Positions 29,783 through 39,091 of a stretch of 64,000 nt of DNA are shown one piece after another. This stretch comes from Blastocatellia bacterium. Lineage in GTDB: Bacteria > Acidobacteriota > Blastocatellia > UBA7656 > JADIYM01. The stretch is taken from the NCBI GenBank assembly GCA_016705245.1, contig JADIYM010000009.1:31433-95432 (forward strand). Reading direction: 5' to 3'. Position 1 is the stretch's first letter. Each line of letters begins with the position of its first letter. A program made the position numbers and the translations under genes. The notes under the pieces were generated by a model, which did not search any database, had not been told where the DNA came from, and was given only the letters and a program-made list of their open reading frames with translations.

Positions 29783-32311
29783 ATGCGCCGTAAGTCACTG
29801 GTCCTGACCGTTGTCATCTCGTTCCTCGCCCTCGTGTCCAGCCCGATCGGGGCACGCGCCCAGTCCGGCCTGCGCCGTGGACCGGCACCCGTCATGGAGG
29901 ACTTCGTCCCCGGTGACGTCCTGGTCCGGTTTCGTCCCGAAGCTGCGGGAAAAGTGGACGAGCTCGGCTCCCGGTACGGCCTCGTCCGCGAGGAGCGCAT
30001 CGAGGGAATCGGCATCGAGCGAATGCGGCTTCCGGCCGGTGGAGACGTCCTCGACACCATCCGGCGCCTGAGGAACGATCCGAACGTCCTCGTCGCCGAG
30101 CCCAACTACGTCGCGCGGCTGTGCCTGACGCCGAACGATACGCTCTACGCCGGGGTCGACGGATTCGCGAACGACCTCCAGAAGTGGGCCTTTGCGGGCA
30201 CCGACAGCGAACCCGGCATACGCGCCGAACCGGCCTGGGACCTCACGACCGGGCGGCCCGACGTAACGATTGCCGTCATCGATTCGGGAGTGTTTCTCAC
30301 GCACCCCGACCTCGCGCCGAATCTCTGGACGAATCCCGGCGAGATCGCCGGAAACGGCGCCGACGATGACGCGAACGGCTTCATTGACGATGTGCACGGA
30401 TGGGACTTCTACGCGTCGGACGGCGACCCGAATCCGGACCTCGGCAACGGCATCAACGACGACGGCTTCGGCATCGGCGACGACAATACGTACCACGGCA
30501 CCTTCGCGGCGAATCTCGCCGCCGGACGCGGGAACGACGGCCGCGGCGTCTGCGGTACGGCGTGGCAGTGCTCGGTGATGGCGATCAAGATCTTCACCGA
30601 CGACGGGGTCGCGAACACGTTCCACATTGCGGAAGCTCTCGCATACGCGGCGGACAATGGCGCCGACGTCATCAACATGTCGCTCGAGACGCGTTCCTCG
30701 AACACCACGCTGCAGGAAGGCGTCGCTTACGCCATCGCGCGCGACTGCATCGTCGTCGCCGCGGCCGGCAACGACGGATTCTCGAGTGCGGTCTACCCCG
30801 CCGGTTACAGCGGAGTGCTTTCGGTCGGCGGCTCGGGCCACGCGTTCGGCTCGCCGGCCGTGCAGGGCTTCTTCGGCCCGCCCCGCCCGCTCGGCCGTCC
30901 GAACTTCTCGAACTATGGCCCCGTGGCCGTCGACGTCGTCGCCCCGTCGATCGTCTTCTCGTCGAGCGTCGCGAGCGTCACGGACGCCAACGACAACCCT
31001 GGCCTCGAGGCCGGTGACGTCATCAGTTTCACGTCCTCCGGAACGTCCTTTTCGTGTCCGATCGTTGCGGGCGAGGCTGGCCTCGTTCTCTCGCGCGATC
31101 GCGACCTGAACGGCGGCGTGCGGACGCTTTCGAATGCCCAGGTCGTCGAGATAATCGAGGGTCACACACAGAACCTTCCGGACGACACGTTCGACTCGCC
31201 CAACGGCGGTGAAACGTGGGACAACAAGGGCCGGGTAGACGTCCGCGGCGCGGTCGAAGCCGTGACGGGAACGGGCGGCGGCGATCGCTCGGTCAAGCTG
31301 ACATGGCAGACGCCGGATGGCTCGGAGCTGGCCGCACCGACCGGGCTCATGGCAGAGGATCTGAGCGCGGGCAAGCTCCTCACGGTCAACGAGTCCGAGC
31401 CGAACAACTCGACGGCGAGCGCGCAGACGATCGTGACTCCCGAGACGGTCAACGGACAGATCGCGACGAACGACGAAGGGCCGGTGAAGATTGTTTATGA
31501 GGACACGACGGAAGATGTCGTTGAGGATCTGTACAAATTCACGCTGGCAACCGAGAAGAGTCTGAATGTCCGTCTCACCCCCAATGGTGATTCAGATCTC
31601 GACCTTGCGCTGCTGACGGATATAGACGGCAACGGCGAATACACGTTCGAGCCTGAGTACCTTGCGGCGAACCCGGCGACGGGCCCACAGCAGACCGAAG
31701 GGCTGACAAACGTAGTGCTACCTGCCGGCACGTACTACGTCGCGTGCACGATTTACGACGGGGCGCCGATCGTACAGTCGGACGGCTACACGCTCGCAAT
31801 CACGAATGGCGCGCCGATCGTCGAGGGCTACCGGATCTACCGGCAGACGACGGCTGGCGTCGACGTCTCGATCCAGAACCGGATCGCCCAGGTCAGCGGC
31901 GTGCAACTCACGTTCACGGACACCTCGGCGCCCGACGGCGACGTCTTCTACGTCGTAACGGCCGTGTATTCGGGCGGTGAGAGCGGTCCGTCGAACGAGG
32001 CCGGCACCGGCGACGTCGACCCGAACGCTCCCGTCGTCATCAGCCCGGTCTACAAGAAGGGCAAGCTCACGCTAACCGCGGCGGGCTCGAAGATCGTCAC
32101 CGGAAGTGTGCTCATCGTCGGCAACACCGAATCGTTTGCGTTGAAATCCGCCAAGGGCGGGACGGTCTGGCTCGTGAAAAAGAACGTCCGGAGCACGCCG
32201 GGCAGTCTCAGAATCAGCGAGGCGCTGCCGTTTGGACAGGACGTCACCCTCACAATCCTGACGCCGACCGGCTTGCGTTCCGCACCGGTCACTTTCCGCC
32301 GACAGTCGTGA
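29783..32311 (+). CDS. secreted subtilisin-like serine protease (S8) with propeptide, PPC-like and Fn3-like domains and shared C-terminal module
   Basis: Signal peptide. Catalytic triad contexts VIDSGV, HGTFAA, GTSFSCP. 842 aa. Confidence 0.9.
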   Translation: MRRKSLVLTVVISFLALVSSPIGARAQSGLRRGPAPVMEDFVPGDVLVRFRPEAAGKVDELGSRYGLVREERIEGIGIERMRLPAGGDVLDTIRRLRNDPNVLVAEPNYVARLCLTPNDTLYAGVDGFANDLQKWAFAGTDSEPGIRAEPAWDLTTGRPDVTIAVIDSGVFLTHPDLAPNLWTNPGEIAGNGADDDANGFIDDVHGWDFYASDGDPNPDLGNGINDDGFGIGDDNTYHGTFAANLAAGRGNDGRGVCGTAWQCSVMAIKIFTDDGVANTFHIAEALAYAADNGADVINMSLETRSSNTTLQEGVAYAIARDCIVVAAAGNDGFSSAVYPAGYSGVLSVGGSGHAFGSPAVQGFFGPPRPLGRPNFSNYGPVAVDVVAPSIVFSSSVASVTDANDNPGLEAGDVISFTSSGTSFSCPIVAGEAGLVLSRDRDLNGGVRTLSNAQVVEIIEGHTQNLPDDTFDSPNGGETWDNKGRVDVRGAVEAVTGTGGGDRSVKLTWQTPDGSELAAPTGLMAEDLSAGKLLTVNESEPNNSTASAQTIVTPETVNGQIATNDEGPVKIVYEDTTEDVVEDLYKFTLATEKSLNVRLTPNGDSDLDLALLTDIDGNGEYTFEPEYLAANPATGPQQTEGLTNVVLPAGTYYVACTIYDGAPIVQSDGYTLAITNGAPIVEGYRIYRQTTAGVDVSIQNRIAQVSGVQLTFTDTSAPDGDVFYVVTAVYSGGESGPSNEAGTGDVDPNAPVVISPVYKKGKLTLTAAGSKIVTGSVLIVGNTESFALKSAKGGTVWLVKKNVRSTPGSLRISEALPFGQDVTLTILTPTGLRSAPVTFRRQS

Positions 32312-39091: not shown

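Follow-up and report, generated by a model that had tools for sequence, protein, structure and literature searches.

Four genes for secreted proteases lie one after another on the forward strand of a 64-kb stretch of DNA from a Blastocatellia bacterium (phylum Acidobacteriota; contig JADIYM010000009.1), the whole of which is termed here the window. The four open reading frames (ORFs), named P1 to P4 in their order along the strand, belong to two unrelated catalytic classes, S8 subtilases and HExxH metalloproteases of the NF038122 family. Three of them (P2-P4) terminate in one shared small module, a basic domain of immunoglobulin (Ig)-like IPT/TIG fold, and it is this module and its possible role on exported enzymes that are analyzed here. 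The four genes are as follows.

29783-32311, + strand: P1, secreted S8 subtilase, 842 amino acids (aa)
32542-34272, + strand: P2, secreted NF038122-family HExxH metalloprotease, 576 aa
34313-36067, + strand: P3, secreted NF038122-family HExxH metalloprotease, 584 aa
36110-39091 (start uncertain), + strand: P4, secreted S8 subtilase with an InhA-like MAM domain

The order S8, HExxH, HExxH, S8, all on the + strand, had been proposed in a first-pass annotation of this DNA and is borne out by scores against Pfam PF00082 (Peptidase_S8; cutoff 21.8 bits) and NF038122 (cutoff 80 bits). In P1 the S8 domain spans residues 160-459 (120 bits, E = 1.7e-34) and follows a signal peptide and a fervidolysin-type N-prodomain (Fervidolysin_NPro-like, 5e-12). 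P4 scores 132 bits (2.4e-38) against the same S8 model and 26.6 bits (4.9e-6) against InhA-like_MAM, just below the cutoff of 26.9; the triad motifs DSG, HGT and GTSxxxP can be read in both proteins. The catalytic parts of P2 (residues 109-385, about nucleotides 32866-33696, with the motif HEIGH) and of P3 (residues 117-397, with the motif HEFGH) match NF038122 over the full model with 217 bits (4.2e-64) and 187 bits (5.5e-55), respectively, and the two proteins are paralogues that are 40% identical (BLASTP 8.6e-105 over 551 aa). All four N-termini, judged by reading, resemble signal peptides, as had also been proposed, on condition that translation of P4 starts upstream of GTG 36272.

A homologous C-terminal module in three of the four proteases

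P2, P3 and P4 are homologous over their last ~88 aa. A hidden Markov model (HMM) of the family was built from 131 homologous modules of other organisms, from which P2-P4 were excluded, and was run on the six-frame translation of the window, where it detects the three modules listed here (with their net charges and isoelectric points, pI) and no further copy.

34003-34269, + strand: P2 cationic TIG-fold module, +8, pI 11.1, family HMM E = 1.2e-24
35795-36064, + strand: P3 cationic TIG-fold module, +6, pI 10.4, family HMM E = 1.5e-34 (the sequence used for the structure model)
38837-39088, + strand: P4 cationic TIG-fold module, +10, pI 11.4, family HMM E = 7.2e-17

Pairwise, the three are 27-44% identical. 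When whole proteins are compared by BLASTP, the C-terminal ~80 aa constitute the sole similarity of the metalloproteases to P4 (P3-P4, 3.5e-5; P2-P4, 2e-3). The module consensus is ...DPGGPxIxxAxxxGKKLxIKGxGFxxxxQLEVNGVxVAPPxxIKVKxxGKKLKIKGSxxxLNLRSGANRVRVxxxGLRSNIFVLTL, in which the motifs EVNG, GxNR and SN are near-invariant over 224 modules. By these sequence comparisons the homology of the P2-P4 modules is real. Hence the earlier proposal that all four proteases share one C-terminal module stands for P2, P3 and P4, by both HMM and BLASTP, and falls for P1, whose tail has no detectable homology to the others and is considered separately below.

In P2 and P3 the module is the second half of a two-domain cassette, the first half of which is listed here.

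33694-34002, + strand: P2 upstream cassette domain, acidic, beta-rich, of no named family
35504-35794, + strand: P3 upstream cassette domain, the homologous region upstream of the module

Of 91 members of the family, 77 have a homologous region of ~110-130 aa immediately upstream of the module (93 members by HMM). It gives no Pfam or NCBIfam match and, as far as its sequence tells, is itself an undescribed domain family. This domain accompanies the module in most non-metalloprotease cargos; P4, in which the module is joined directly, and the abundant metalloproteases of ~490 aa have the TIG module alone.

Size, position, cargo and lineage of the family

When 1.84e9 cluster representatives were searched exhaustively with HMMER, 299 proteins emerged at E ≤ 1e-3, 117 of them at E ≤ 1e-10; this result supersedes a word-indexed search with the three window modules, which had returned 3 fragments only. 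Among the best 150 of these 299 there are 146 single-copy matches, in 133 of which the module ends 0-3 residues, and in 143 at most 6 residues, from the C-terminus. An ordinary internal Ig-like domain, found at any position in a protein, had been named as the finding that would speak against a special C-terminal module; terminality in 143 of 146 cases shows that this is not the nature of the present subfamily. Only 0-2 residues follow the last strand, and the final module residue is a hydrophobic L, F or I in 57% of cases. The few proteins with multiple matches are giant repeat proteins, either of the CoaZ type (described below) or of other types.

The cargo, that is, the remainder of the protein, is diverse. 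Among 52 full-length members it is NF038122 in 31, S8 in 7, pro-kumamolisin/S53 in 5, BACON in 3, trypsin-like and SBBP propeller in 2 each, and Kelch and FG-GAP in 1 each. Over the family as a whole the cargo includes three kinds of S8 subtilase, S1 trypsin-like proteins, S53 sedolisins, Kelch/glyoxal-oxidase-like and FG-GAP/cadherin-like proteins, and several unannotated cores. The pre-peptidase domain PPC is also present in 3 of the 52, and N-termini resembling signal peptides occur in 52 of 60 full-length members. The S8-MAM-module architecture of P4 recurs in three proteins (P0083, P0124 and P0139).

The module of one SBBP protein (P0013) is 92% identical to that of a Kelch protein (P0033) and 82% identical to that of a metalloprotease (P0024). 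To judge by such identities, the module is exchanged between unrelated cargos. (A related observation concerns the proteins P0013, P0021 and P0033, among which SBBP propeller and Kelch protein share, around unrelated cores, both a C-terminal cassette that is 87-92% identical and a similar N-terminal signal-peptide region, KPRNIAR...; their ends appear to have been exchanged or homogenized as units.)

Among the 118 proteins closest to P2 in the catalytic domain, 82 carry the module, in every case within 2 residues of the end. Across the 118, the C-terminus is either the module, nothing, Fn3, a PPC-like domain or another beta domain, so that catalytic-only NF038122 paralogues without any C-terminal domain exist. 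The idea that this is a choice-of-anchor arrangement, in which the same catalytic domain would elsewhere carry PEP-CTERM, was set aside, as no tag of the transmembrane type occurs among the 118.

Where a source is named, it is a metagenome-assembled genome of Blastocatellia, of Pyrinomonadaceae or of other Acidobacteriota, with one exception: P0226, labelled Pirellulaceae. This protein, encoded on a 1.1-kb contig, is the closest relative of the P2 catalytic domain (75% identity), and its planctomycete (Planctomycetota) label is probably a binning error rather than a sign of the module family outside Acidobacteriota. The family is thus restricted to one lineage, mainly Blastocatellia-like Acidobacteriota. 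Genes of the window itself, for an ADOP duplicated permease and for CarboxypepD_reg/outer-membrane-protein beta-barrels, also indicate Acidobacteriota, and so do the closest homologues.

Fold and relation to named families

An AlphaFold2 model of the P3 module, computed from a 60-sequence alignment, is an eight-strand beta sandwich (predicted local distance difference test, pLDDT, 95.5; predicted TM-score, pTM, 0.86). Its best Foldseek matches in the PDB are Ig-like domains of SGBP-B from Bacteroides, IPT/TIG domains from CSL/RBP-Jk and EBF, and a C-terminal E-set domain that belongs to copper radical oxidases (query-normalized TM-score, TMq, 0.54-0.65; probability about 1; E about 1e-2), and IPT/TIG-annotated viral proteins rank first in BFVD. 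By its predicted structure, then, the module has an E-set Ig-like IPT/TIG fold, in agreement with the likeness to IPT/TIG that had been noticed at first pass. A search of PDB sequences with the module profile gave chance-level matches only.

No Pfam or NCBIfam model covers the module. Against Pfam TIG (PF01833, gathering score 20.9 bits) the P3 module reaches 11.6 bits (E = 0.29), and P1, P2 and P4 give no match; the same model recognizes 2 of 52 family members at E ≤ 1e-3. The module of P0127, at 22 bits, lies above the gathering score. The module shares with IPT/TIG domains the same predicted eight-strand sandwich, and its strand pair P-x-I ... K-L-x-I-x-G-x-G-F is the classic TIG motif. However, canonical TIG domains occur at any position in a protein, often in tandem, whereas the module is single-copy, strictly C-terminal and cationic, and 50 of the 52 members are not recognized by Pfam.

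The nearest named sequence relative is CoaZ_rpt_PGGG (NF058597, the choice-of-anchor Z repeat; cutoff 30 bits), against which the P2 module scores 22.5 bits (E = 8.6e-5) and the P3 module 15.1 bits, with no match for P1 or P4. When the module family is aligned by hhalign with the seven tandem CoaZ repeats of protein P0103, the probability is 91% (E = 1e-6, 76 columns). On these profile scores the kinship is real but remote: CoaZ repeats are internal, tandem (7 copies in P0103) and acidic; the module is terminal, single and basic.

Several other identities were considered and rejected. PEP-CTERM, LPXTG, GlyGly-CTERM and MYXO-CTERM tags are excluded by the C-terminus itself, which ends in a beta strand (...G-L-R-S-N-I-F-V-L-T-L) and has neither a hydrophobic helix nor a basic tail; no NCBIfam sorting-tag model matches it. 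The C-terminal domain (CTD) of Bacteroidota's type IX secretion system (T9SS) (TIGR04183, TIGR04131, PF18962) gives no match to the modules at E ≤ 10 in NCBIfam or Pfam, and is not among the top 50 structural matches of the module model. PPC (PF04151) is a beta domain that likewise sits at the C-termini of secreted peptidases from unrelated catalytic classes, and that co-occurs with the module in some carriers; nevertheless, the modules give no match in a direct scan with its model, it constitutes an unrelated sequence family, it is often duplicated or followed by other domains, and the module occurs also on non-peptidases. TIGR03437 (Soli_cterm), an Acidobacteria-specific paralogous C-terminal domain whose function is not known, overlaps part of a CoaZ/TIG-like repeat in P0103 (6.6e-13), but its model, with 225 positions, is more than twice the length of the module, and it matches neither whole window proteins (E ≤ 1) nor isolated modules (E ≤ 10). 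Literature searches on the module and on NF038122, TIGR03437 and choice-of-anchor Z turned up no relevant work. The module is therefore an unannotated, lineage-restricted IPT/TIG subfamily within a known kind, namely, the C-terminal accessory or anchoring domains of secreted hydrolases.

A basic module on acidic cargo

In 137 full-length members the module has a net charge of +5.1 ± 1.9 and a pI of 10.1 (above 9 in 98% of them), and the cargo a net charge of -18 ± 6.7 and a pI of 4.8 (below 7 in 100%). For module and cargo in the window the corresponding charges are +8 and -19 in P2, +6 and -17 in P3, and +10 and -23 in P4. The charge is built into the family pattern: about ten alignment columns are conserved as Lys/Arg, several of them alternating along strands (KIKVK, KLKIKG, NRVRV).

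Four controls bear on this dichotomy. The mean charge over the 90 aa upstream of the module is -5.1; a net charge of +4 is attained by only 2.2% of 90-aa windows within the cargo; the internal CoaZ repeats, which are homologous, are acidic, with charges of -2 to -7 (-2 to -5 in P0103); and among NF038122 paralogues that lack the module there are non-homologous ends that are nonetheless cationic, either Fn3 (+5, +4 and +2) or an unnamed beta domain (+8 and +9).

Possible roles of the module

The reading preferred here, with a probability of roughly 0.45, is that the module is a portable cationic C-terminal domain of IPT/TIG fold by which acidic exported enzymes are tethered, through electrostatic attraction, to a polyanionic surface. 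A strongly acidic hydrolase bearing the basic TIG domain at its C-terminus would be exported by the Sec route; after export the domain would bind a polyanionic surface non-covalently. This surface might be the producer's own (lipopolysaccharide, capsule or an exopolysaccharide layer) or an external one, whether anionic substrate or particles (for example clay, cell-wall debris or necromass rich in nucleic acid). Either way, the acidic enzyme would be held near the cell or on its substrate rather than diffusing away. Because paralogues exist that consist of the catalytic domain only, and because others have non-homologous ends that are equally cationic, a charge-based binding role is suggested rather than a specific recognition signal, and polyanion binding with retention of the enzyme is the most likely function. 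Some observations weigh against tethering. The predicted function is drawn from composition and position; the PPC-type C-termini of some paralogues are not cationic, so that the charge theme is not universal; and the strict terminality of the module, whose last strand is followed by 0-2 residues and whose final residue is hydrophobic, fits recognition signals better than binding domains, which would accept tails and internal positions.

That last property leads to a different explanation, namely that the module is a true sorting or secretion signal like the T9SS CTD, recognized in its folded form by an undescribed Acidobacterial outer-membrane translocon or attachment enzyme; the cargo would be moved to the cell surface, after which the module would be removed or the cargo linked to a surface polymer. 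The first-pass annotation had likewise remarked that the module behaves as sorting or anchoring tags do. Its placement, its single copy, its diverse cargo and its confinement to one lineage agree with that remark as an analogy of position; no sorting machinery was found beside the genes, in the window or in six other contexts, and ordinary accessory domains such as PPC, too, recur as C-terminal beta domains on exoproteases of unrelated classes. The likeness to the T9SS CTD is nevertheless considerable: both are small Ig-like sandwiches of about the same size, present once at the extreme C-terminus (in >95% of module family members) of varied signal-peptide-bearing, Sec-exported cargo of unrelated classes (hydrolases and adhesins in the case of T9SS), and both are confined to a narrow lineage. 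In addition, the terminal strand of the module is conserved as hydrophobic, and near-identical cassettes on unrelated cargos are what would be expected if one receptor must fit all.

Set against this likeness are the lack of any sequence or structural match to the T9SS CTD, and the detection of T9SS in Bacteroidetes only, in a survey of 2,484 genomes (PMC4793230). No recurring secretion, sortase-like or processing gene was found beside module genes in the window and in six other independent contexts (L003, L004-L008, L013, L014), nor were T9SS core genes (Sov/SprA, PorV, PorU, PorK-N) found in the 64-kb window or the six other loci. (Because the cargo genes of known sorting systems are usually dispersed as well, this lack of neighboring machinery constitutes weak evidence.) Moreover, close paralogues have either no C-terminal domain or a non-homologous cationic one, which a specific receptor would not recognize, and the three modules of this one genome are only 27-44% identical to one another. 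A sorting signal of this kind is consequently judged unlikely. A bolder version, and a long shot, generalizes it into an undescribed surface-sorting or outer-membrane export pathway of Acidobacteriota (Blastocatellia), whose cargo signal would be the cationic TIG domain, either by itself or together with the domain upstream of it. Functionally such a signal would match the T9SS CTD of Bacteroidota, though domain and machinery would both be different; basic ends of the Fn3, 'beta-X' and P1 types might then be alternative entry tickets to the pathway, or binders of the same anionic acceptor.

A further explanation, which is rather improbable, makes the module a C-terminal pro-domain or a folding or stability aid of exoproteases, one that would assist folding, solubility or latency in transit and be lost extracellularly through autoprocessing. 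There are comparable cases: the pro-sequence at the C-terminus of aqualysin-type subtilases, and PPC, a cleaved domain that unrelated secreted peptidases have in common. Most carriers are indeed peptidases, of four catalytic classes, PPC accompanies the module in a few of them and has a weak counterpart within P1, and a basic domain could dock in cis on a very acidic enzyme. However, modules or cassettes up to 92% identical occur on SBBP propellers and on Kelch/glyoxal-oxidase-like, FG-GAP/cadherin-like and BACON proteins, which are non-proteases with no need of latency and no autoprocessing; the module has no sequence similarity to PPC; and the catalytic-only paralogues do without it.

It is doubtful, lastly, that the module is an ordinary Ig-like structural spacer without a specific role, its terminal placement and spread reflecting easy C-terminal accretion in one lineage and its charge a by-product (e.g., of offsetting acidic cargo): although the E-set/TIG superfamily is very common, the closest relative is an internal tandem repeat, the Foldseek E-values are modest and no partner genes were found in the contexts examined, a neutral spacer explains neither the basic columns and near-invariant EVNG, GxNR and SN kept across 224 modules, nor the extreme positional constraint, nor the acidity of the homologous internal repeats, nor the convergence of unrelated alternative C-termini on the same charge.

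Acidobacteriota rank with the most abundant bacteria of soil, and Blastocatellia presumably feed for the most part on proteinaceous substrates; to our knowledge, almost nothing is known about how these organisms deploy their exoenzymes. A strictly C-terminal cationic domain that has moved among about ten kinds of secreted enzymes offers a testable handle on whether exoenzymes are kept at the cell surface or aimed at anionic substrates, a question of consequence for the economics of protein breakdown outside the cell and for nitrogen turnover in soil. An HMM for the family would improve the annotation of several hundred 'hypothetical' tails that Pfam and NCBIfam do not cover, and the module could mark the Blastocatellia secretome or serve as a small polyanion-binding tag. 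If it were a true sorting signal, a new secretion or anchoring system would be indicated.

The C-terminal region of P1

In P1 the S8 domain is followed by a weakly PPC-like region (residues 581-653; 22.5 bits, under the cutoff of 25.9), which is internal and apart from the tail, then by an Fn3-like stretch, and finally by an orphan basic region.

32015-32308, + strand: P1 C-terminal ~98 aa, beta-rich, cationic (+9, pI 10.8), orphan; possible functional analogue of the module

This tail has no BLASTP match to P2-P4, gives E = 2 against a 3-sequence HMM, and gives E = 0.48 against the 131-sequence family HMM, with only ~28 residues aligned. At the level of profiles, where the significance of the proposed four-way similarity was to be judged, P2-P4 are homologous by the family HMM, and the P1 tail reaches by hhalign a probability of only 12% over 27 columns. 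No homologues of the tail were found either by word-indexed search or by local jackhmmer over all sequences collected in the analysis, and a single-sequence AlphaFold model of it (pLDDT 41) is unusable. What it has in common with the module is the generic TIG-like motif of the first two strands and strong positive charge only. A P1-type subtilase that is 42% identical to P1 (P0142) ends, unlike P1, in a genuine module or cassette.

The P1 tail, with its charge of +9, sits on a protein of -57, and it may, though not homologous, do the same job as the module. What unites the four proteases of the window is therefore a very acidic exoenzyme with a basic, beta-rich C-terminal region, which in three of them is the same domain. 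A similar layout was observed at other loci: two genes downstream of a module-bearing protease, L004 and L005 (12186-13217) and L006 (12278-13264) encode a Tat-signal, intradiol-dioxygenase-like (Dioxygenase_C) protein whose C-terminus is a TIG-like domain of more generic kind (E about 5e-4 with the module HMM). Its layout is like that of the P1 tail, a hint that exported Blastocatellia proteins may bear C-terminal TIG-like domains of a wider range.

Genomic surroundings

In the loci examined elsewhere, module genes are solitary within ±10 kb, and the three-in-a-row layout is therefore particular to this genome. (A scan of metagenomes supplied 4 loci, mostly short; a scan of genome contigs, which relied on the single narrow peptide pattern [NDG]GLRSNIFV, returned one.) In two lineages a Peptidase_M48 gene, with a response-regulator/histidine-kinase pair upstream of it, sits just before a gene for a ~490-aa NF038122-plus-module protein (L004-L006, 8870-9932; L014, 8331-9434). 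Since this arrangement is absent from the window, L003, L007 and L013, it was judged to be local synteny and not a partner system.

Two long, near-perfect inverted repeats flank P4 on both sides, and a terminator-like element lies between P2 and P3.

36100-36191: inverted repeat, 42-nucleotide (nt) arms, 98% complementary, 8-nt loop; between the P3 stop and the P4 signal peptide, containing TTG 36110
39089-39183: inverted repeat, 43-nt arms, 86% complementary; directly after the P4 stop
34277-34291, + strand: terminator-like hairpin with T-rich tail, a consensus match only, of a kind rarer here than in shuffled sequence

The options for the start of P4 are TTG 36110, the sole canonical in-frame start upstream of its signal peptide; the gene caller's GTG 36272, with which the signal peptide LILRRALLAVAVFLLSGLFVISSTAQ is lost; and a non-canonical start near 36185. 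Because the first inverted repeat overlaps the only canonical upstream start, both the translation start and the signal peptide of P4 are uncertain. Degenerate copies of the motif GCGCAAAGGC, from an arm of this repeat, occur at 6519, 8362 and 8805.

Upstream of P1 lies an ORF (28404-29366, + strand) with an N-terminal membrane helix, a long proline-rich tract of low complexity (PPPP/KPEP, with 12-nt periodicity in the DNA) and a conserved C-terminal helical region, which the public gene call splits into two genes; the gene upstream of P1 has a repeat family of 136 nt on its flanks. A palindrome resembling repetitive extragenic palindromes (REP) or miniature inverted-repeat transposable elements (MITE), with the core CCGTCCGTGGGACGCTCGCTACCGCTCGCGGCTC, is present in 10 copies in the window (0 expected), often as inverted pairs (19515, 27852-28133, 29501-29606 and 51416-51713).

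Other genes of the window include a glyoxylate-shunt and gluconeogenesis cluster (375-8573, - strand) with genes for isocitrate lyase, malate synthase and phosphoenolpyruvate carboxykinase; an M28 peptidase of 1002 aa, to which PA and PD40/TolB-like propeller domains are fused (47452-50460, + strand); genes for CarboxypepD_reg/outer-membrane-protein beta-barrels; and an ADOP duplicated permease (53859-56636, + strand; TIGR03434, 915 bits), a type of protein that is a hallmark of Acidobacteria.

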